A stretch of DNA of 29,475 nt from a virus. Its lineage: Duplodnaviria > Heunggongvirae > Uroviricota > Caudoviricetes. The notes beneath the pieces were generated by a model. That model was given only the letters and a program-made list of their open reading frames with translations. It searched no databases and was not told where the DNA came from. Location: positions 1 to 29,475 of the IMG/VR virus record IMGVR_UViG_2778261167_000005. The stretch is one strand, 5' to 3'. Shown here one piece after another: positions 3,980-14,931 of this stretch (position 1 is the stretch's first letter; every line of letters begins with the position of its first letter). The translations under genes and the position numbers were made by a program.

Positions 3980-6913
3980 TTATGCCTGAGTACGCAGCGC
4001 TTCAAGGCGGCGCAGGTCGAAGTCGTTCAGTTCGTCGGTGTAGTCTTCGGTTATCGGTGCAGACCAGCAATCGGTGTCATACGCATTTGCGAGTGCACGC
4101 ATGGTGCGCTGATACTCCAGCAGCCCGAGGTCGAGCAAATCTTCCGATGCCTCAATTACCGCCACCCAGTGGTAGCCCTCGTCTTTGTTGACGAAGATCC
4201 AGAAGAACTGATCAAAGTCGGCAACGGAGCAATACATGCCAGCGCTGAGGTGGTAGTCGCGGTCGATGATTTCCCGGTGCAGTTTGGCGCGCAAACCGTC
4301 TTGCTTAACGCGTCCCATGCTGATCGTCTTCAGGTCAACACCGATACGAACGCCGTTGATTTGAACCTCAAGGTCAGGGCGCACACGGACTTCCAGACCG
4401 GTTTCGTCGTCCATCCCGAAATAACTTGTTTCCACTGAACGGGAAGGATGGCGCAGCAGTTTCCCGGCTGATTCATGATTCAGTAGGGCTTGCTGAATTG
4501 CCGTGGCCAGCGTCAGTTGTTCTCTGGACAGGATGGTTTTCCCATCAACGCTATCGCGCCATTGCTGCTCAAATTCATCAGCGAAAATGGCCTCCGGGCT
4601 GACCGCGCGTATCGCCGCCTGAAGTTCTTCTTTCTTACCGGTGAGCTTCAGTTGCTCGGCCTTTGGCTTATCCGCGTTAAATTCTCGAATGAACGCCTTC
4701 ATGGAGTCGGTGGTGGTAAACGCCTCAGCCGGAATACCTGGGAATACCGCAAACTCTTCGTGGAGCTTTTCGGGCTCCAGGGCCAGGGTGTGCGCCAGGC
4801 TACCGAACGTCAGCGCCTCGCTGCTTTCGCGACGGATAGTCTTGGTCACGTGACGGCCGTGATAGAACATCAGGCTGACACGTGCGTCTTTCACCTGGGT
4901 TGAGCTGATACCGTTCGCTGCGTGATAAACCTCGTTCGGCAGACCTTCATAGCGGCCAGGTTCGAAGTAAGCAGGGTACACAACACCCGGTTCGTCAGAT
5001 TGAGCTTCTGGCTCGGTTTGGGCCGCAACCGGTTCGGTTTGGTTTACAGAATCGCTGTTTTGGCTAACAGAATCCGCATTCTGGCTCACATCGGCTTGCT
5101 GGCCGGTATGTGACTCTTCACCAGTTTCCAGACTGCTTTCGCCTGACTGCACTTCATCACCAGCCTGTTCTTCATCACTGACAGTTTCTTCCATCTGCAC
5201 ATTGCTGGTGGTTTCCTCATTAAGTGGTGAACGGTTATCTGTTTGGGTTTGTTGATCGCCCATCAGGCCATCAATGGAGAATACGCCGTTGCCCATGTTG
5301 GCGATTTGTGGCTGTTTAGCAGCTGTTTTCTGCTCTGCAGCGACCTGCTCATTAACCTCATTTTCCCAGCTGACGTCCGGCGCATGACCAGCATCAGCCA
5401 GCGTTTCTTCTGAGGGGTTTGAGTGGTCATTTTCGGTTAGATTGGCATTGATATATGCCCGCAACCGCCCAGGAAAGTTAACCAATTCTGATGATGTGCC
5501 GCGGATGAGTGCAAAGATGGCGGCGCGTGAATAGTCCAGGATGCCAGCGGTTTTGCGCAGCGCCTCAGACCATTCGCTGAACGGACTTTCTTTCTTGCTG
5601 ACAATCTCTTTAGCGCGACGGTAGACCCCACCAGGTATGTCGTAGATATTGAAATCCATTGGCAAGGTGGCCAGCGCAATTTCAACATCCAAAGTGTCCA
5701 GTGTGTGGACATAGTCGGTATTACGATCGGTCTTATTTCCACCGCCAGCATTGGTTTTGACGTCAGTACGTTGAATCTGCGCAATGCGGTTACCTTTCTG
5801 CCATTCCTTGACCAGCAGGCCACGGTCGATGTAATCAGTGTTGAACCACACAGTCAGGAACTGGATAACTGTTGCCAGCTCCGGTTTTTTACCGTCGACA
5901 GGGAAGACTTTCTTAACAGCATTCACGACTTTATGAATATCGTGCTCAATGGCTTTTTTGAATGCTTCCACATTCTCAGCAGCCAGCAGCAGGTTCTGGA
6001 TGTACGTGTCATCAGTGTCCATCTCAAGGCGGACAATCTCGTTTTTCTGCCCAGCGTCGATGTGATAGAGATATTCACCATCACCGATGAACTGAGCCAG
6101 TACGCGCTGACGGAATGGCAGGGTGGCTACGACGATCAGGTTCGGCTGATCTGGCTGCTGAGATTGTTCTTCGGGACCGACTTCATCACCAACGCTGGTG
6201 GTTTCAGTTTTGAGCAGAGGAAACCTTCCACTGCGCCAGTCTTCAACCAGTTGATTGCGATCACCTGCTTCTGCGTTCACCCAGTCAGACATGAAAGCAG
6301 CGATCACTTCAGGTCCATGCTCTTCACCCTGTTCGAAGATGTCTTTAATCGCCTGAATCATTTTCCACTCAGCATTAAGACTGAGTTCGCCAACTTCAGG
6401 AACATCATTTTTAACCTGCAGCAAGTTCTGGAGATAGGTATTGCTTTCGGCCAGTGACATTTCGCTGGCAGCCAGCTGCTGCTCTTTAGTGACGTGAGTC
6501 TGGTACTTATCGCTCATCAGATGGAAGGCAAAACGGACTGCTGGAGTGCGGTTTTCTAACGATACATTCTCGTCAGAAGTCGCTACTTCATCGGTATTTT
6601 TTACATCGGCAGGGATAGTGGTGACAACGTCGCCAGCGGCCTTTGGCAGCCAGGTGCGCCCGTCGTCCTGTAGTTCGTAACGATCACACCAGGTGAAATC
6701 AACTTCACCTTCTTCCGGCAGGTCATCAACAACAGGAAAATCTGTGCGAATTGGTTTAGCGTAGTCCTTGCCACGACCGGTCTCGATACCTGCATCTTCC
6801 AGCGCAACGTCCAGCATCAGGTTGGCGCGAGCCTCAGTTTTTGCAGTGAACCAGATAAAAGCATCAGGCTTTCCCGACTTTTGTGTGGCTTTAACTACAT
6901 ATGGAAATTCCAT
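3980..6913 (-). CDS. recE: Exodeoxyribonuclease VIII (RecE-like 5'-3' dsDNA exonuclease, PD-(D/E)XK C-terminal domain)
   Basis: 977-aa ORF; C-terminal region (...YFEPGRYEGLPNEVYHAANGISSTQVKD..., ...RPDLEV...DLKT...) resembles the RecE nuclease domain; long acidic low-complexity linker; paired with recT. Confidence 0.7.
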   Translation of the reverse strand: MEFPYVVKATQKSGKPDAFIWFTAKTEARANLMLDVALEDAGIETGRGKDYAKPIRTDFPVVDDLPEEGEVDFTWCDRYELQDDGRTWLPKAAGDVVTTIPADVKNTDEVATSDENVSLENRTPAVRFAFHLMSDKYQTHVTKEQQLAASEMSLAESNTYLQNLLQVKNDVPEVGELSLNAEWKMIQAIKDIFEQGEEHGPEVIAAFMSDWVNAEAGDRNQLVEDWRSGRFPLLKTETTSVGDEVGPEEQSQQPDQPNLIVVATLPFRQRVLAQFIGDGEYLYHIDAGQKNEIVRLEMDTDDTYIQNLLLAAENVEAFKKAIEHDIHKVVNAVKKVFPVDGKKPELATVIQFLTVWFNTDYIDRGLLVKEWQKGNRIAQIQRTDVKTNAGGGNKTDRNTDYVHTLDTLDVEIALATLPMDFNIYDIPGGVYRRAKEIVSKKESPFSEWSEALRKTAGILDYSRAAIFALIRGTSSELVNFPGRLRAYINANLTENDHSNPSEETLADAGHAPDVSWENEVNEQVAAEQKTAAKQPQIANMGNGVFSIDGLMGDQQTQTDNRSPLNEETTSNVQMEETVSDEEQAGDEVQSGESSLETGEESHTGQQADVSQNADSVSQNSDSVNQTEPVAAQTEPEAQSDEPGVVYPAYFEPGRYEGLPNEVYHAANGISSTQVKDARVSLMFYHGRHVTKTIRRESSEALTFGSLAHTLALEPEKLHEEFAVFPGIPAEAFTTTDSMKAFIREFNADKPKAEQLKLTGKKEELQAAIRAVSPEAIFADEFEQQWRDSVDGKTILSREQLTLATAIQQALLNHESAGKLLRHPSRSVETSYFGMDDETGLEVRVRPDLEVQINGVRIGVDLKTISMGRVKQDGLRAKLHREIIDRDYHLSAGMYCSVADFDQFFWIFVNKDEGYHWVAVIEASEDLLDLGLLEYQRTMRALANAYDTDCWSAPITEDYTDELNDFDLRRLEALRTQA

Positions 6914-7052
6914 GTGAGATCCTCATTTTTGGGTGTTAGAATCCCCGAGCCATTGATAGCGCCCATTGGGTTAACTTTGGTTTTAATGTTGTTTCCGGTG
7001 TAACTTTGGTCGGTGGCACCGGACGTAGATCCCGCCTTGCGCGGGTTTTACG

Positions 7053-7214
7053 TTAGCCTTCGTGAGCCATCTGGTCGTGCGAAGCGCAACGTTTGGAACA
7101 ATACTCTTTCTCTTTGCGCGCCAGCTGTGAGCCGTTTCGATAGAGAAGGGTGCTTTTTATTACTTCTTCCGGTTTAACCGGTTTGCTGCAATAACCGCAT
7201 TTCTTGTCTTGCAT
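7053..7214 (-). CDS. Small Cys4 zinc-ribbon protein (YdaE-like position in Rac)
   Basis: Hand-translated 53 aa, not in the ORF track: MQDKKCGYCSKPVKPEEVIKSTLLYRNGSQLARKEKEYCSKRCASHDQMAHEG; CxxC...CxxxC. Confidence 0.5.
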   Translation of the reverse strand: MQDKKCGYCSKPVKPEEVIKSTLLYRNGSQLARKEKEYCSKRCASHDQMAHEG

Positions 7215-7225
7215 GACACTCTCCG

Positions 7226-7432
7226 TTAATGGCTGAGGCCATTCCCCAGACCGTTCAGATAAACTTCAACCAGCAAATCCCTGGTGTAAGTCATCTCAAC
7301 GCCTCGATGCAGATACAAACGACCACGAGCGTTAGCTGATGCTGTCCAGGTTGAGTCTTTGTGTTTGACGAGCATCCCAGGCTGAACTGCGCCGCGGTTT
7401 ACCGTCTGTGTACCGTAGTACTGATGAACCAT
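7226..7432 (-). CDS. Hypothetical small protein, first gene of the leftward operon (Kil-like by position)
   Basis: Start taken at ATG 7432 (MVHQYYG...) with GGAG RBS; alternative GTG start at 7534. Kil assignment is positional only. Confidence 0.35.
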   Translation of the reverse strand: MVHQYYGTQTVNRGAVQPGMLVKHKDSTWTASANARGRLYLHRGVEMTYTRDLLVEVYLNGLGNGLSH

Positions 7433-7666
7433 GATGTTCTCCAGTTTTTCTGAGTGAACTTCGCTGGTGGTGCCGTCGTGCTGATCTTCACAGTTGAGCG
7501 TTTTAACTCTGCAGTTCACCACCGCGAAGCTCACTTCTGTTTTGCCTTATAGCCGGCCAGCTGAGCGTTAAACCTGATGCGCGTTATTCAATCCACCTCA
7601 TCCGACTATTCATATGCCGTCGGCGGCTACTTCGTGGGCGTCCTGCCTGAGTGGTTCGTGTTGCGA

Positions 7667-7705
7667 TGGAGTAAGTAAAGCACCATTTTACTTTATGGTC
7701 AAACA
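7667..7705 (-). promoter_or_regulatory. Leftward early promoter PL with operator palindrome AGTAAA-N7-TTTACT
   Basis: Minus strand reads TTGACC (-35), 17-bp spacer, TTTACT (-10); the operator at 7675..7693 overlaps the spacer and -10; 35-nt stretch is nearly identical to the PR region at 9563..9598. Confidence 0.6.
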
Positions 7706-7845
7706 AAAGGTGTTCTACGTGGAGGATGTTGCGTGACGGAAGGCAAAAAAATCGGCGCGATGGCTGAGATCGGAGAGAGGAGCAGGCATTTAGCATGTTC
7801 GTCACTCGGTGCTAATCTTTCTGGGTGGCACAACGGAGCGGAACG

Positions 7846-8043
7846 ATGAAGAGCAAAGACGAACAGACTGGGTTGGTTGGCTTGGCGATTGGCGCGGCAG
7901 TGATTGGCTTGGTATCAGTTCAAAAACCCATTAACCGGGCGAGCATCATTGACGAACTGGTGAGACTGGGGAGACAGAAGGGCGATGGCGTTCAGGATGA
8001 GGTGTTTGAGAAGGCGGCGGAGCTGGTGAGTAAAGGGGTATAA
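7846..8043 (+). CDS. Small hydrophobic protein (65 aa), probable single-pass membrane peptide
   Basis: ATG at 7846 with GGAG 7 nt upstream; MKSKDEQTGLVGLAIGAAVIGLVSV...; lies between PL and the repressor-linked moron, convergent with it. Confidence 0.45.
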   Translation: MKSKDEQTGLVGLAIGAAVIGLVSVQKPINRASIIDELVRLGRQKGDGVQDEVFEKAAELVSKGV

Positions 8044-8066
8044 AAACCCGGCGCGATGGCCGGGTC
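8041..8066 (-). terminator. Intrinsic terminator for the minus-strand gene 8100..9020
   Basis: Stem CCCGGC/GCCGGG (8047..8064) with TTTTTA on the minus-strand 3' side (8041..8046). Confidence 0.6.
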
Positions 8067-8099
8067 ATATATTAGTCATCATTCGTATGAAACTAAAAA

Positions 8100-9020
8100 T
8101 TAAAAAGGTAAATCAATTTGCCTTTGTGGGTTGATTATTTTTTTTACCTTCACTATCTCATATGAGGTTTTTATACCTTTATCAGCAAGATACTGAGTGA
8201 TTTTTAGATCAACGAGCAAAAGGTCGCCTTTTGCAAAAGCAACTGATTGCTCATCAATCGCATTGAGGAATTTCTCATCACTGACCTCGGCTTGAAATGG
8301 GCTTGCACCATCTGAAAAATTCCATTTATGGCCTTCTCGAAATGAGATATCAAGAGGATGAAGTGCTCTTTCTGTAACGGACTCAGAAATAATAGTTTCT
8401 TCAGTGCTGTCTACTTTGAAAAAACATGCTTCACTCTTTGTAACTTCAACAAAAGTATGACCATCATCGATAGTGACTGCAAAACTATCGATCCCATCCC
8501 TCTCCAATGGTTTAGAGATTACATTCTCAAGAGCTCTGCGTATTTTTTTATTTTTATATAAATCTATGACTTGATTGTCAAAAACCTCACTTTCATCATC
8601 GATGAAAATTGTGGAGCTACCGTCAAATGTTGGCTCAATACGTTTAATTTTTTTTGGACCTAACCATTTTATTAGCTGAATCAGGCCCTTATATGACTGC
8701 TTAGTGGCTAAGTAGCCAAAACCTACCAAGCTTATGATATTGCAAGCAGCGGAAGCATTATTTCCAGAAAAAACACCTAGTATTTGACTTGTTATGGATG
8801 TTGACTGCGCTATGAGATCAATTCCAAAGGAACCCGCTTTAAATGAAGCGTTGACTTTAATTGATATACGCCTTTCTTTTCCATAGATAGTTTTTCCCGC
8901 CTCTTCTAAAGCATCGGATAGTGACAAAAGCGCCGGCGCAAGATCACGTACATCCATCTCGTGCGTGTCCAAAGCTGGGCCGTCGTAAACTATTCTGAAC
9001 TTCATATCGTCACTATCCAT
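8100..9020 (-). CDS. Uncharacterized 306-aa protein in a low-GC moron downstream of the repressor (rex/sieB-equivalent position)
   Basis: Long ORF with ATG at 9020; distinctly AT-rich compared with flanking phage genes; co-oriented with the repressor; own terminator; no motif I recognise. Confidence 0.6.
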   Translation of the reverse strand: MDSDDMKFRIVYDGPALDTHEMDVRDLAPALLSLSDALEEAGKTIYGKERRISIKVNASFKAGSFGIDLIAQSTSITSQILGVFSGNNASAACNIISLVGFGYLATKQSYKGLIQLIKWLGPKKIKRIEPTFDGSSTIFIDDESEVFDNQVIDLYKNKKIRRALENVISKPLERDGIDSFAVTIDDGHTFVEVTKSEACFFKVDSTEETIISESVTERALHPLDISFREGHKWNFSDGASPFQAEVSDEKFLNAIDEQSVAFAKGDLLLVDLKITQYLADKGIKTSYEIVKVKKIINPQRQIDLPF

Positions 9021-9135
9021 CAATGCCTATCCTGTGCATGATTATAAACCTGATCGTATATACAGTACATTTAATAAGTCATTACTTAGATGTTCTCTTA
9101 CCCACTGCTACTCTCTATGCACTGACCAGAGGTCT

Positions 9136-9519
9136 TCAATCCCCCTGCGATCTGATCCGCCCCTTCATGTACTTCTCATACAACTCATCCAACTCTTTCA
9201 GGCGAATGGCAAAGATGCGGAGCATGTTCTGTTGCTCTTCTTCCGGTAGTTGGCGGTAGAGCTCCAGCAGACGCTGTTCGTCCGGCTTGAGGCCGTCTTT
9301 CTCATCGACATCCTCACCGAGTAACCAAGGTACCGAAACGCCAGCTGCATCAGCGATGGCCAGTGCAGATTGTTTGCTAATCCTTCCTGTTTTGAACCAG
9401 CTGGATACAGCTTGCTTACTGACACCAGCAATCTTGGCCATCTCCGTTTTGGAGAAGCCTTTATTGTTCAGTTCTGTGAGTCTCGAAATAAGACCGTCTG
9501 TCAATGTGTTTTCACTCAT
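9136..9519 (-). CDS. Prophage repressor, HTH XRE-family (RacR/CI-like, no peptidase domain)
   Basis: 127 aa from ATG 9519; HTH segment KTEMAKIAGVSKQAVSSWFK; divergent from the Cro-like gene; operators in the 97-bp intergenic region. Confidence 0.75.
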   Translation of the reverse strand: MSENTLTDGLISRLTELNNKGFSKTEMAKIAGVSKQAVSSWFKTGRISKQSALAIADAAGVSVPWLLGEDVDEKDGLKPDEQRLLELYRQLPEEEQQNMLRIFAIRLKELDELYEKYMKGRIRSQGD

Positions 9520-9616
9520 CTCATGATTGTAAATGATTGCTTTACTCTCTGATAGGGATGTATTGTTTGACACGTCAGTAAAACAATGCTTTACTTCCTT
9601 CATCTAAGGAGGTCCC
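9520..9616. promoter_or_regulatory. Immunity switch region: PR promoter plus two operators (O1 9577..9595, O2 9528..9546) and a candidate PRM
   Basis: PR: TTGACA 9567..9572, 17-bp spacer, TTTACT 9590..9595, AGGAGG RBS 9607..9612. O1 AGTAAAacaatgcTTTACT; O2 TGTAAAtgattgcTTTACT. Minus-strand TACAAT lies immediately before the repressor ATG. Confidence 0.65.
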
Positions 9617-9826
9617 ATGACTGGTATTGAAAATGCAATTCTCCGATCTGGCTCGGCCAGCGCGCTTGGCGCTTTGATCGGCGTTTCAAAAATGGCTGTT
9701 TCGCTGTGGCGCCGTAAAGGAATTCCTGCCGAACGAGTGCTACCAGTGTTTGAGGCAACCGGCGTAACGCCCCACGAACTGCGCCCAGATCTCTACCCAA
9801 ATCCCACTGACGGTTTACCAAAGTAG
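9617..9826 (+). CDS. Cro-like HTH regulator (YdaS-like)
   Basis: 69 aa, strong AAGGAGG RBS; HTH LGALIGVSKMAVSLWRRKG; first gene of the rightward operon, divergent from the repressor. Confidence 0.7.
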   Translation: MTGIENAILRSGSASALGALIGVSKMAVSLWRRKGIPAERVLPVFEATGVTPHELRPDLYPNPTDGLPK

Positions 9827-9837
9827 GAGCACTAACC

Positions 9838-10377
9838 ATGCAGACACTTACTTATCAGAATGATAGCGACATTACTCAAGGGGTAATGATAAATCGCGCT
9901 CAAGCGCGCAGGGGGCCGAGCCATGAAGATATTCGTGACGCGGTTCGCTCCTGGGCTGGCGCCGATGGCCAGGACGTAGTCACGGCTCTGATCATCGAAG
10001 AGTACCTGGCGCAAGGAGGTGATGAGATCACTTTTCCTGATGATCTCTGCCGAAAACGCCAGAAGCTGTTCCGCTTTCTGGACAACCACTTCAACAGTGA
10101 ACGGTACCGCGAGAACGTTCGCCAGCTGACTCCGGCAATCCTCGCAGTTCTGCCGATTGAATACCGCAACCGTCTGCTGCCAGAAGACAACATCATGGCT
10201 CGCCTGGCACGTATGGAGAAGGAAACCAGCGAAGCGAAGATAGCTGTCGCAATGGATGCGCCGCGTCATCAGAAGCTGAAAGAGCTGAGTGAAGGGATCG
10301 TGGAGATGTACCGCGTTGACCCTGGCTTAACCGGGCCGCTGATGGAAATGGTGCAGATGATGCTGGGGGTTGTATGA
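9838..10377 (+). CDS. YdaT-like protein (Rac YdaT family)
   Basis: 179 aa; conserved-looking segments EEYLAQGGDE and LTPAILAVLP recall E. coli YdaT; sits immediately after the Cro/YdaS-like gene as in Rac. Confidence 0.55.
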   Translation: MQTLTYQNDSDITQGVMINRAQARRGPSHEDIRDAVRSWAGADGQDVVTALIIEEYLAQGGDEITFPDDLCRKRQKLFRFLDNHFNSERYRENVRQLTPAILAVLPIEYRNRLLPEDNIMARLARMEKETSEAKIAVAMDAPRHQKLKELSEGIVEMYRVDPGLTGPLMEMVQMMLGVV

Positions 10378-11722: not shown

Positions 11723-12120
11723 AACCAACATACGAACAACTTGAACAGCAGGTGCTCGAACTGTCAGTACAGCTCGCTAACTCCGAGAGCAAGTGCAGGG
11801 AGCTGGCCGGGGTAGTTGCTGATAACACTGATTTAAAATCGCTGATTGAACAACATGCAGGCTCTATCGCTGTATGTCCTAACTGCTCACACGAAGAGCC
11901 AAGCGAAACTGACGATATCGTTGCGTTATATCGCTCACTGAAAACCCCAGCCACCGACGCTTTCCTGGCTGAAGTGCGGGTGCAGGGCGTGGAGATGTTT
12001 GCTGACTTCTGCGGTGAAGAAAACTCTGTATTCGTCGAGGCCAAGGCTTACTACCGTTCACTTGCGGATGCAGTTGAAGAGTTTGCCGCACAGCTACGCC
12101 AAGGAGCCGCGCATGAGTAA
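11719..12120 (+). CDS. Hypothetical phage protein with N-terminal coiled coil
   Basis: 133 aa, GGGAGA RBS, overlapping stop/start with neighbours. Confidence 0.5.
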   Translation: MKPTYEQLEQQVLELSVQLANSESKCRELAGVVADNTDLKSLIEQHAGSIAVCPNCSHEEPSETDDIVALYRSLKTPATDAFLAEVRVQGVEMFADFCGEENSVFVEAKAYYRSLADAVEEFAAQLRQGAAHE

Positions 12121-12589
12121 CGCAGCGACTGTTTTGGATGTGTGCTGCGGCTCCCGCATGTTCTGGTTCAACAAGCAGGACACCCGCGCCGTGTTCGCTG
12201 ATATCCGAGCCGAAGAGCACGAGCTGTGCGATGGTCGCCGCCTGGTTATCAGTCCCGACCTGATTTCCGACTTCCGTGCGTTGCCATTCGCCGACGCATC
12301 GTTTCCGGTTGTGGTGTTTGATCCACCACACCTTGAACGTGTCGGCCAAACAGCCTGGATGGGTAAAAAATACGGGCGACTGAACAAAAAAACGTGGCGT
12401 TCGGACCTGCGAGCCGGATTCAAAGAAGCTTTTCGCGTGTTGTGGCCACATGGTGTGCTCATCTTCAAATGGAACGAAACACAAATACCGGTTAGCCAGA
12501 TTCTGGCGCTTACAGACGTGAAACCGGCAATTGGCCAGCGAACTGGGAAGAACGACAAAACCCACTGGATTATCTTTGTGAAGGACTAA
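12113..12589 (+). CDS. Small class-I SAM-dependent methyltransferase (motif I LDVCCGS, motif IV DPPH); putative nucleic-acid amino-methyltransferase
   Basis: 158 aa; glycine-rich SAM motif near the N-terminus and VVFDPPH; AAGGAG RBS; start overlaps the upstream stop (ATGAGTAA). Confidence 0.6.
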   Translation: MSNAATVLDVCCGSRMFWFNKQDTRAVFADIRAEEHELCDGRRLVISPDLISDFRALPFADASFPVVVFDPPHLERVGQTAWMGKKYGRLNKKTWRSDLRAGFKEAFRVLWPHGVLIFKWNETQIPVSQILALTDVKPAIGQRTGKNDKTHWIIFVKD

Positions 12590-12748: not shown

Positions 12749-13381
12749 TTATTTTTTCATGACTCGTTTGGCTTTGCGTTCCATGCGGTTTAATGCCGCT
12801 CTTGAGTCGATCCGGTTCAAGTCTGCCTTACTTCGGATTAGACGTTCTTTCGGGTTCCATCCATGATCTAACTCAATTCGGAGTTGTTTCCGGATATCTG
12901 CTGATAAAGCTGCAACTTTCAGCCCTAAATCTGCGTAGAGCCTCCGGCGTTTCAACATGTATGAATCCATCATATCACTACCGAACTCCGGGTTAGAGGT
13001 CATCTCACGAAGTTCTTCTCTGACTTTCAACAATTCGATATCGATTGATTGCAAACGATAGATTAAGGTTGGTTCAAGGTACTTATATTCGCCTTTAACT
13101 GTGCTCATATCGAAATCAGGCGAGGGAACTTGTACTTCGAGACGGTCCGGATAATCCGGTTCCGGTGAGCTTGCATCGAATCCCCGATCCCAGGAAACAT
13201 CTGCACACTGACTAACGAATTTATCGAGCAGGAACACAAGTTGAACACTAATGTAAGCGCGTTCCTCTTTACGCTTTCTTATGTCGAACGCAACTTCTTT
13301 GATCAGGTTGAAACAAAGTGGAAAACCGATTGCAGCAGCACCAGCTAAAAAGCCTTGCATAGCAGGACTAAGACCGAACAT
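12749..13381 (-). CDS. Uncharacterized membrane-anchored protein (N-terminal TM helix), opposite-strand moron
   Basis: ORF on the minus strand inside a plus-strand operon; N-terminal hydrophobic segment FLAGAAAIGFPLCFNLI; lower GC; start uncertain (ATG 13381, ATG 13360 or TTG 13408), no clear SD. Confidence 0.5.
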   Translation of the reverse strand: MFGLSPAMQGFLAGAAAIGFPLCFNLIKEVAFDIRKRKEERAYISVQLVFLLDKFVSQCADVSWDRGFDASSPEPDYPDRLEVQVPSPDFDMSTVKGEYKYLEPTLIYRLQSIDIELLKVREELREMTSNPEFGSDMMDSYMLKRRRLYADLGLKVAALSADIRKQLRIELDHGWNPKERLIRSKADLNRIDSRAALNRMERKAKRVMKK

Positions 13382-13685
13382 ATGTGGACACCGAAAGAGA
13401 GCGAGCAAAGGATTATAAACGTAGTGATGGGGTGATTAAAACGCGTTGAACTGGCTGTTTTGAAATGGACTTTTAAACTTTGACTAAGGTCATTAAATCA
13501 TCGCGATTTGAAGTTTAAGCGAAAATAGTTGATGAGGGGTATTGACCTTTAGTGCTCGCCGGTGACAAGCCAACTCAGGAAGAGATTAATGATGCTGTAA
13601 GGGACGCGCGAATTACCCATCCGTGGAAATTCGCCTGGCATTGATTGATGTATAATCCCTCTCAATGTATCGAGGGGGATTATAC

Positions 13686-13943
13686 ATGTCGGACTGGAAC
13701 ATCGCAGCAAAATCGAAAGAAGAGCAGGACAAGGTTAACGTCGACCTTGCTGCCTCCGGAGTTGCGTACAAAGAGCGTCTGAACATGCCAGTTATCGCCG
13801 AGCAGGTATCCCGTGAGCAGCCAGAGCACTTACGCGAATACTTCATGGAGCGCGTTCGCTACTACCGCGAGCAAAGCCTGACGCTTCCAAAAGCATCCGA
13901 TCCGCGCTATCTGGATATGGCAGCCCAGAACGAGAAGAAGTAA
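13686..13943 (+). CDS. Small hypothetical protein (possibly the cold-shock-induced YnaE/YdfK family of Rac/Qin; uncertain)
   Basis: 85 aa, ATG 13686 with GAGGGGG RBS; preceded by a palindrome overlapping a TATAAT box. Confidence 0.45.
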
Positions 13944-14197: not shown

Positions 14198-14691
14198 TCG
14201 ATCGATAATACCGATCGATTTGATTAAATTGATCTATGAAATCGATTATCAAATAAGCACAGCGCAGCAACAAATTACCAACCTGACTTTCCTCGCCACG
14301 AGTGAAATATGTCCCCTGACGACATCGACACCTTTGTCATTTACCTGACGAGAGCATTCCAATCAGATATTTACAATCGACAGTTTTGACGTAGCCATCT
14401 GTTAAAAATAACGATCAATTTTTGCGCGAAAGTAGCAATAAAATTTATCTAAATCAATCGGATAAATGACCTTGCGCAAACAGGCCTTTCATGTGCATAC
14501 TTAAGCAAAACAGACAAATACTGTTTATATGTACAGTTGTTTTGGAGTATAGTTAAGATGTTGCAGTAAATAGTTTTATTTTTCTTCCAGCCAACCTATT
14601 AGGAAATTCGTGCCATTTGGTATGTTGGTTCAGTGAACGGGATTATCCCGGCTGGAAGAGTGAAATTTGTTGATAGCAAAGAGGGGGTTTT

Positions 14692-14931
14692 GTGAAGGAA
14701 AGTCAGGAGCAAGGCGATTGGTACGACATTATCAGGCGTTCTGATGGAAAGCTTATGGCCTCAATGCCACTGGATCGTCAGTATCTCGTCTATAGCAGAA
14801 ATGGCCTGGTATCATGCCGTCCATTACTGGAGGATGAAGGGGTCTTCAACCTTTCATCTGGGACTCGTTTTCTTCGCCGACTTGGCTACCGCATCACCCA
14901 ACCCTCTGATATCATAATATCAACGGATTGA
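14692..14931 (+). CDS. Hypothetical small protein (GTG start)
   Basis: 79 aa; GAGGGGG 5 nt upstream of GTG 14692. Confidence 0.45.
   Translation: MKESQEQGDWYDIIRRSDGKLMASMPLDRQYLVYSRNGLVSCRPLLEDEGVFNLSSGTRFLRRLGYRITQPSDIIISTD

Follow-up and report, generated by a model that had tools for sequence, protein, structure and literature searches.

We analysed a 29,475-nucleotide (nt) stretch of a tailed-phage genome (Caudoviricetes; IMG/VR record IMGVR_UViG_2778261167_000005, positions 1 to 29,475; hereafter the window), in which a gene of low GC content lies between a prophage repressor gene and the promoter PL. The gene (8100..9020, minus strand) encodes a 306-amino-acid (aa) protein of the LAPAL (PDC-S42) family, as assigned from the list of open reading frames (ORFs) and from matches to PADLOC PDLC05015, PHROG 3243 and NCBIfam NF053583. 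It appears to belong to a self-contained mobile cargo cassette (8042-9135), which would consist of a LexA-operated sigma-70 promoter, a ribosome-binding site (RBS), this one gene and a terminator, inserted between repressor and PL. Expression of the gene is here probably SOS-gated via LexA, rather than by simple co-transcription with the repressor. We regard it as an even call that its product is an SOS-boosted, prophage-borne exclusion or abortive-infection protein.

The putative cassette promoter was read directly from the sequence. It has the -35 hexamer TGTACT (9069-9064), a 17-nt spacer and the -10 hexamer TATAAT (9046-9041), thus covering 9041..9069 on the minus strand, and it is followed by a Shine-Dalgarno sequence, AGGA (9030..9033, minus strand), 9 nt 5' of the ATG at 9020. 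Both the -10 hexamer and the Shine-Dalgarno sequence are conserved in the loci of homologues. A LexA (SOS) box, TACTGTATATACGATCAGGT (9048..9067, minus strand), identified by pattern match and conservation, lies over the -35 hexamer and the spacer. The E. coli LexA consensus is TACTG(TA)5CAGTA, i.e., CTG-N10-CAG. The box has the CTG-N10-CAG pattern and agrees with the consensus at 14/20 positions, its left half being perfect, and the uvrA/ssb operator of MG1655, TACTGTATATTCATTCAGGT, is identical to it at 17/20 positions, both half-sites included. An 18-mer LexA pattern matched at 9048..9067 with 0 mismatches and gave three matches in the window vs. 0.21 expected by chance; these represent two sites, because the palindromic one at 14519-14538 matches on both strands.

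Alignment of the 130 nt 5' of the start codon among enterobacterial loci showed that the repressor-side sequence is unrelated and that a block of ∼70 nt is conserved, in the order (T/A)ACTGTATA(T/A)NCGATCAGGT, -10 hexamer (TATAAT here) and RBS. This promoter/box block is kept across loci whose proteins share 57-96% identity. Of 68 distinct loci, 22 have a LexA box of strict score within 200 nt 5' of the LAPAL gene; the background rate in the same loci is 0.0069 per 210 nt. Several of the remaining enterobacterial loci have box variants with one mismatch. The 22 include Orbus and Burkholderia loci, whose repressors are different: the Orbus copy has a near-perfect LexA box directly after an S24 repressor, and the Burkholderia copy has one 182 nt upstream of the LAPAL gene. 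No LexA box was found in the same slot of E. coli prophages with alternative cargo, nor 5' of bstA, a gene of phage BTP1. Since the box travels with the gene and is absent where the cargo differs, it belongs to the cassette and not to the slot. The overlap of this travelling box with the gene's own -35/-10 region is the reason for proposing SOS gating.

The sequence-only reading of this DNA had proposed that the gene is co-transcribed with the repressor in the lysogen. The data do not bear this out as it stands. The 115-nt spacer between the repressor and the 306-aa ORF contains no terminator and no significant structure (z = -0.04), so low-level read-through from the repressor gene is possible; with a LexA-operated promoter of its own, however, co-transcription is probably not the main logic of the gene. 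An Rfam search detected no RNA elements within 7000-10000.

The same reading had placed the ORF right after the repressor on the same strand and had described it as AT-rich relative to the phage backbone, and the data bear out both statements. The ORF list gives a minus-strand ORF at 8100..9023, which is 307 aa from a TTG and 306 aa from the ATG at 9020, with its TAA stop codon at 8100-8102; it lies 115 nt downstream of the repressor gene. Another in-frame ATG, at 9005, likewise follows a purine-rich stretch and is equally plausible as a start, and because distant homologues and the NCBIfam profile start near residue 6-8, the LAPAL gene may start at either 9020 or 9005. The GC content of the cassette (8041-9135) is 0.383 vs. 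0.513 in the rest of the window, and GC at third codon positions (GC3) is 0.313 for the 306-aa ORF compared with 0.46-0.62 for neighbouring ORFs. Among all 1095-nt stretches of the 29.5-kb window, 8041-9135 is the one with the lowest GC (window-wide mean 0.508, standard deviation 0.044).

On its left side the cassette is bounded by an intrinsic terminator (8042..8066), a hairpin CCCGGC-CATCGC-GCCGGG followed by T5, which is shared with a convergent 72-aa ORF. The terminator-containing 71-nt stretch folds at -21.1 kcal/mol (z = -4.3) with a 6-nt loop, and the gene's own terminator, which the sequence-only reading had proposed at 8041..8066, is thereby confirmed. A generic promoter/terminator scan missed both the terminator and the cassette promoter, the latter because its -35 hexamer matches at only 3/6 positions; both elements were established instead by folding and comparative alignment.

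The genes rexAB in lambda and sieB in Rac and P22 are the classical cargo of the slot between cI and PL. The sequence-only reading had assigned the gene to the equivalent slot, and comparison with related prophages agrees with it: the gene lies between repressor and PL, and E. coli prophages with the same backbone (RecE-YdaE-Kil...repressor-YdaS-YdaT-replication; here L095-L097) hold different genes there. The alternative cargo is a 467-aa protein (PHROG 5990; L095:1510-2913), a 117-aa protein (L096:1712-2065) and a pair of 136- and 149-aa proteins (L097:1549-2411). None of these has a significant PADLOC or Pfam identity, with weak sub-threshold matches only for the 136-aa protein, and for this reason the slot cannot be called a proven defence hotspot. 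The genes form a pool of further candidate lysogeny-module cargo.

Pairwise BLAST showed that homology to the alternative-cargo prophages breaks at 7665 and resumes at 9135 (L095) or at 9153-9155 (L096/L097); the right break in the closest relative, at 9135, is the repressor stop codon. Two LAPAL-carrying loci (L010/L011) share the sequence from 8039/8042 onward and do not share 7666-8038. With break-points at the terminator and at the 3' end of the repressor gene or just within it, the mobile unit is 8042-9135, nearly the same as the 8041-9135 of the sequence-only reading. The terminator hairpin CCCGGCCATCGCGCCGGGTTTTT at 8042-8066 is almost identical to the hairpin CCCGGCCACAGCGCCGGGTTTTC that follows bstA in phage BTP1 (∼28085-28110), and the short piece 8013-8065 is common to an E. 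coli prophage with different cargo. From its sequence, this hairpin may be a conserved slot boundary where cargo is exchanged, as the comparison suggests. By sequence the cassette is a moron: it has its own predicted promoter and terminator, a deviant composition, and a presence/absence pattern between related prophages, and the LAPAL gene behaves as one in that related E. coli prophages hold other cargo in its slot. The convergent 72-aa ORF (7825..8043, plus strand; PHROG 3975), which has one hydrophobic helix, belongs to the variable left flank. A two-gene system with this ORF was considered and rejected because the ORF is not co-inherited with the cassette. In the position of the 72-aa ORF, L096 has a DUF2767 protein that RefSeq names "fumarate hydratase FumD", a seemingly unlikely name for a prophage gene this small, and L097 has a 68-aa hypothetical protein with no Pfam match.

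The genomic context of homologues was surveyed in 80 viral-contig loci with ORF calls, from which 48 distinct upstream same-strand neighbours were counted. These included 17 with Peptidase_S24, 23 with HTH_3 and 9 with Phage_CI_repr matches (overlapping counts). A CI-type repressor thus precedes the LAPAL gene in about half of the distinct loci or more. These repressors come from several families that are unrelated to each other (short RacR/DicA-like, P22 C2-like and lambda CI-like), and the same order of repressor and LAPAL gene occurs in an Orbus prophage, a metagenomic element and a Burkholderia prophage. The lysogeny modules of Lactobacillus phage A2, a Listeria phage and a Bifidobacterium phage hold the gene next to the integrase, and in A2 and the Listeria phage an apparent promoter of its own was read. 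One homologue, from Desulfobulbus, is found in a small chromosomal islet outside any prophage.

The sequence-only reading recognised no motif in the protein, which does not hold: the protein is already catalogued as an end-to-end member of PDC-S42, LAPAL_fam and PHROG 3243. The PADLOC hidden Markov model PDLC05015 for PDC-S42 matched residues 5-305 (profile 3-299 of 302; E 1.3e-87, 292 bits), PHROG 3243 ("unknown function") gave a full-length match (E 5e-92), and NCBIfam NF053583 (LAPAL_fam), titled "LAPAL motif-containing putative phage structural protein", scored 282.9 bits vs. a cut-off of 60. Public E. coli assemblies include an identical protein. Relatives with 81-95% identity occur in Pseudescherichia, Enterobacter, Cronobacter, Hafnia, Yersinia, Klebsiella, Erwinia, Pantoea and Lonsdalea, those with 35-45% identity in Methylobacter, Burkholderia, Pseudomonas and Desulfobulbus, and those with 26-32% identity in Lactobacillus phage A2, a Listeria phage and Bifidobacterium phages. 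At 50% identity, the family numbers 5,298 clusters (E ≤ 1e-3) in a profile search of 1.84 billion representatives. The best 150 of these 5,298 matches are mostly ∼300 aa long and align in a single stretch, which indicates a standalone protein. Megablast of 8041-9135 gave no match in 5,426 complete E. coli genomes or 50,697 phage records; judged by the complete genomes, the cassette is rare in E. coli.

The protein is acidic (34 kDa, isoelectric point [pI] 5.05) and has no recognisable catalytic motif. Alignment of 43 homologues showed invariant residues at the N-terminus (Y12, G14, L27-A28-P29, L31, G63, F65) and in the C-terminal domain (F227, W233, G238, F251, D266). The LAPAL motif itself corresponds to residues 27-31 (L27-A28-P29-A30-L31), invariant or nearly so in this set, and the N-terminus, which lies outside the OB-like domain described below, is the best-conserved part of the protein. 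An uncharged, Gly/Ala/Ser-rich hydrophobic segment at approximately residues 76-112 is common to all homologues examined. The AlphaFold model (pLDDT 77.8) consists of a less confident N-terminal part, a confident middle alpha/beta domain and a confident C-terminal domain. The latter has a beta1-3/alpha/beta4-5 topology and most resembles single-stranded DNA (ssDNA)-binding OB folds, so that the model, with modest scores, points to an OB-like fold; K/W/F residues conserved around 232-251 would be compatible with nucleic-acid binding. The N-terminal region of the model had no fold match among solved structures.

A sequence-profile search of the PDB returned noise only (E ∼1), the sole Pfam match was a sub-threshold one to DUF7946 over the N-terminal half (E 0.064; 11/43 members), which is possibly real and uninformative, and the viral structure library BFVD gave matches only to uncharacterised phage proteins, one of them DUF6575. 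The sequence-only reading had treated clear homology to a characterised non-defence protein as decisive against a defence role; profile and fold searches returned no characterised homologue of the LAPAL protein, and thus none of that kind. A paper on phage BH1 was considered as family literature and set aside, as it concerned a different ORF19.

We infer LexA control in vivo, an anti-phage role and each of the mechanistic steps that follow. In the undamaged lysogen, LexA bound at 9048-9067 would hold the cassette promoter down, with some read-through from the repressor gene. DNA damage, or an infection that generates RecA filaments, would raise LAPAL expression, and the protein would then protect the lysogen, and hence the prophage, from other phages, perhaps from co-resident prophages induced simultaneously. 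The C-terminal OB fold, with its K/W/F residues at ∼232-251, may recognise a phage-derived ligand, e.g., ssDNA or a phage protein, and the N-terminal "YDGPAL...DLAPAL" domain together with the segment at ∼76-112 may be the effector, plausibly via membrane association or the blocking of a target protein. SOS gating could be useful as an alarm for DNA-damaging infection, as cover during the collapse of repressor immunity, or as a weapon against co-induced prophages.

This anti-phage reading is favoured because of the PDC nomination, the protection given by 3/7 other PDCs, the recurrence of the gene directly behind CI-type repressors of several families, the rexAB/bstA slot, the lysogeny-module placement in Gram-positive phages, and the precedent for damage-coupled immunity. 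PDC families were nominated as candidates when members were embedded in BREX, DISARM or type I restriction-modification (RM) loci, and PDC-S42 is one of 145 PDC candidates, described there as untested (bioRxiv 10.1101/2024.01.29.577857). In one preprint, 3/7 other PDC systems tested gave phage protection. The slot between repressor and PL holds rexAB in lambda and bstA in BTP1 (PMC8585504), and DNA-damage-coupled control of defence genes has precedent (PMC12392091).

Several observations weigh against it. SOS gating is equally consistent with other roles, e.g., helping induction, and virulent phages that shut the host off quickly would leave limited scope for de novo induction from a LexA promoter. 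No LexA box was detected 5' of most of the distant homologues (35-41% identity) or of the Gram-positive ones, and the latter have no Cheo boxes upstream either; the predicted SOS control is therefore a feature of an Enterobacterales-centred clade and not of the whole family. Some homologues are located in early or morphogenesis regions of Mu-like prophages, beside Gam, Mor, Mu F or a virion-morphogenesis gene, a placement from which lytic expression is expected. With regard to the protein, the OB-fold match scores are only modest, the OB-like domain is acidic (pI 4.9), model confidence is low at residues 50-110, and the hydrophobic segment is borderline as a membrane helix (Kyte-Doolittle 19-residue maximum 1.2-1.85 across homologues, 1.17 here). 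NCBIfam labels the family a "putative phage structural protein", and no experiment on any member was found in the literature under the names PDC-S42, DUF7946 and LAPAL motif, for which there were no papers.

The point that SOS gating fits other roles is developed by the main rival explanation, in which the protein is an SOS-induced helper of the prophage's own induction, i.e., an OB-fold accessory of DNA metabolism (ssDNA or end binding, nuclease shielding, or RecA/SOS modulation). The LexA box over the LAPAL promoter and the resemblance of the C-terminal domain to ssDNA-binding OB folds are what such a helper would lead one to expect, ssb itself has a near-identical LexA operator, and several homologues adjoin Mu Gam, RdgC, Erf or Mor in early regions. 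Furthermore, the post-repressor cargo of Gifsy-1 alters host RNA-repair signalling during SOS and has no known defence role (PMC9879122). However, the cassette moves among phages whose repressors and replication modules are unrelated, and also into islands outside phages, the embedding of family members in BREX/DISARM/RM loci is odd for a replication helper, and the copies in Gram-positive phages look lysogen-expressed, not induction-expressed. The OB domain is moreover acidic, and conservation peaks outside it, in the N-terminus. We regard a role in induction as possible, though unlikely. A different objection concerns regulation: the gene could be transcribed together with the repressor and so be constitutively active in the lysogen, in the manner of RexAB and SieB, the LexA-like site being idle or marginal. 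The arrangement of the two genes on one strand, 115 nt apart with no terminator or stable structure between them, would permit this, bstA, with the same arrangement, presumably uses the promoter of the repressor (PMC8585504), and the Gram-positive and distant homologues manage without a recognisable LexA site. Conservation of the box/-10/RBS block next to unrelated repressor-side sequence, the identity of both half-sites to the proven uvrA/ssb operator, and the specificity of the LexA site for the cassette rather than the slot all speak against it, as does, for a RexAB/SieB-like protein, the lack of homology to RexA/B, SieB or BstA; we consider constitutive expression of this kind improbable.

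Two further explanations have very little probability in our estimation. The NCBIfam title of NF053583 implies a virion protein, and three of the distinct upstream neighbours are indeed morphogenesis proteins (two Phage_tail_S, one Mu F). Yet the gene in the window is part of the immunity region, runs opposite to cro and the replication genes and is ∼10 kb away from both the lysis genes and the terminase (18.6-21.9 kb), and its homologues are repressor-adjacent in roughly half or more of the distinct loci and occur outside prophages as well. Fold searches matched no capsid, tail or scaffold protein, and no publication was found that supports the NCBIfam label. Judged by the genomic contexts, which do not support a structural role, the label is probably misleading, and we would be most surprised by a virion function. 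A LexA-controlled antirepressor of a non-cleavable repressor, like Tum of phage 186 or GfoA of Gifsy, is just as hard to credit. It would account for a LexA-boxed gene adjoining a repressor that has no S24 cleavage domain, but in 17/48 distinct loci the LAPAL gene, with the same box, follows cleavable S24 repressors of several families, which are unrelated targets and need no antirepressor; in all, it is found behind at least three unrelated repressor families. Antirepressors of the Gifsy type are also described as small proteins, unlike the 306-aa LAPAL protein, and their dinI operon lies rightward of the replication genes (PMC3121763), and that arrangement is better matched by the second LexA box of the window (14519-14538).

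Among known systems, the closest counterpart in organisation is BstA of phage BTP1 (Owen et al., 2021; PMC8585504). Each is the product of a single gene (∼307 aa for BstA) directly after the repressor on the same strand, followed by a near-identical GC-rich hairpin, a small convergent ORF and then PL (with N in BTP1 and kil here). Both proteins are found in diverse Gram-negative prophages and occasionally outside them, and both have more than one domain and no catalytic motif. Membership of the BstA family was nevertheless excluded: hhalign of the family alignment gave a probability of 0.7%, and the LAPAL protein has no KilA-N match in Pfam. The two differ also in that bstA has no upstream LexA box and the LAPAL gene has its own predicted SOS-operated promoter, and in that abortive infection and the self-immunity element aba were shown for BstA, whereas the role of the LAPAL protein is inferred. 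Membership of the RexA/B and SieB families was likewise excluded, with no Pfam or PADLOC match at E ≤ 1. The likeness to RexAB and SieB lies in the genomic slot and a presumed benefit to the lysogen; in contrast to RexAB, LAPAL is one gene and not a sensor plus membrane-channel pair, with no clear transmembrane protein, and in contrast to both, the gene is predicted to be SOS-gated and not PRM-driven.

Damage-coupled regulation of defence is also exerted by CapH/CapP and WYL regulators. The LAPAL cassette resembles DdaA of Moraxellaceae (PMC12392091) in that immune-gene expression would be raised upon DNA-damage sensing. It differs from this type in that host LexA would act directly on the promoter of the mobile gene, no dedicated regulator being encoded in the cassette. 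With the dinI-antirepressor operon of Gifsy (Lemire et al., 2011; PMC3121763), as here, a LexA box occurs in a prophage whose repressor is non-cleavable. That operon differs in its small products and in its place to the right of the replication genes, and its likely counterpart here is the box at 14519-14538.

By its neighbour genes, the element that hosts the cassette is the early region of a Rac/Gifsy-like prophage. On the minus strand it encodes a RecE-like exonuclease (3980..6913), YdaE (7053..7214) and Kil (7226..7534), followed by a PL-like promoter 5' of kil (TTGACC-17-TTTACT, 7674..7702), which was identified from operator repeats and direct reading of the sequence. The repressor (minus strand; Pfam HTH_3 and Phage_CI_repr, NCBIfam DicA-like) is of the DicA/RacR type and has no S24 cleavage domain. 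Divergent from it are Cro/YdaS (9617..9826, plus strand) and YdaT/CII-like (9838..10377, plus strand), and then the replication genes. A search for repeat families found three copies of the operator-like sequence GTAAA-N8-TTTAC, two on the repressor/cro side (9529-9546 and 9578-9595) and one (7674-7691) that overlaps the promoter 5' of kil. The third copy and the promoter at 7674-7702 support the position of PL, and with it the distance of 1.8 kb between repressor and PL given by the sequence-only reading. Because the other two copies fall within the repressor ORF as called (9136..9603), the repressor probably starts at the ATG at 9519 (9136..9519, 127 aa).

Other features of the prophage were noted. 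The second LexA box (14519-14538), a near-palindromic TACTGTTTATATGTACAGTT followed by a -10-like hexamer TATAGT, is located to the right of the replication genes. Just 5' of this region is a homologue of the DNA polymerase III theta subunit (13665-13943, plus strand; PHROG 1105, E 6e-41), and ∼150 nt 3' of the box is a 79-aa ORF (14692-14931, plus strand) of PHROG 340, of unknown function. By analogy, the box matches the position and logic of the Gifsy dinI/antirepressor operon (PMC3121763) and is probably the means by which the prophage is induced. A 219-aa ORF (12749-13408, minus strand; GC 0.45) matches the PADLOC candidate PDC-S67 (E 2.5e-29) and, by this match, is a candidate for a second defence cargo of the same prophage; beside it lies a type II/orphan DNA methyltransferase gene (11999-12589, plus strand; MTase_II, E 8e-71). 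The 1095-nt windows of next-lowest GC (∼0.40) start at 19651-19751 and cover a 170-aa ORF (19690-20202, minus strand), which occupies a typical moron position between the lysis genes (18654-19651) and the small terminase gene (21289-), on the opposite strand; it had no PADLOC match.

The LAPAL family is already in the databases and the gene itself is not a discovery. The entries for PDC-S42, LAPAL_fam and PHROG 3243 do not record a LexA box, a repressor-adjacent position or an OB fold; what is new here is the travelling predicted SOS-operated promoter, the sharp delimitation of the cassette, the repeated placement of the gene next to repressors of different families, and the tentative fold assignment. 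The family is very large and extends across phages of Proteobacteria, Firmicutes and Actinobacteria, and the locus provides, under native control and within ∼1.1 kb, a compact construct that makes the catalogue entry PDC-S42 directly testable. A more ambitious proposal, which we hold to be a long shot, is that LAPAL proteins form a large and mechanistically new class of immune effectors, non-enzymatic in action, which mobile elements connect directly to the SOS circuit of the host: cleavage of LexA would arm the protein, the OB fold would sense ssDNA or a phage replication/recombination protein, and the N-terminal LAPAL domain, with its hidden hydrophobic hairpin, would bring either the cell or the competing phage to a stop. 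If this is true, an attractive use of such a LexA-armed effector would be warfare between prophages co-induced by the same DNA damage.

Should the LAPAL protein not be protective, the gene would still be a predicted SOS-regulated prophage cargo, and its description corrects a probably misleading structural-protein label. If it is protective, it would represent a new protein architecture in prophage-borne immunity. The cassette would then be a mobile defence gene switched by the host LexA repressor, and antibiotic- or damage-induced SOS would be linked to phage susceptibility and to competition among prophages.

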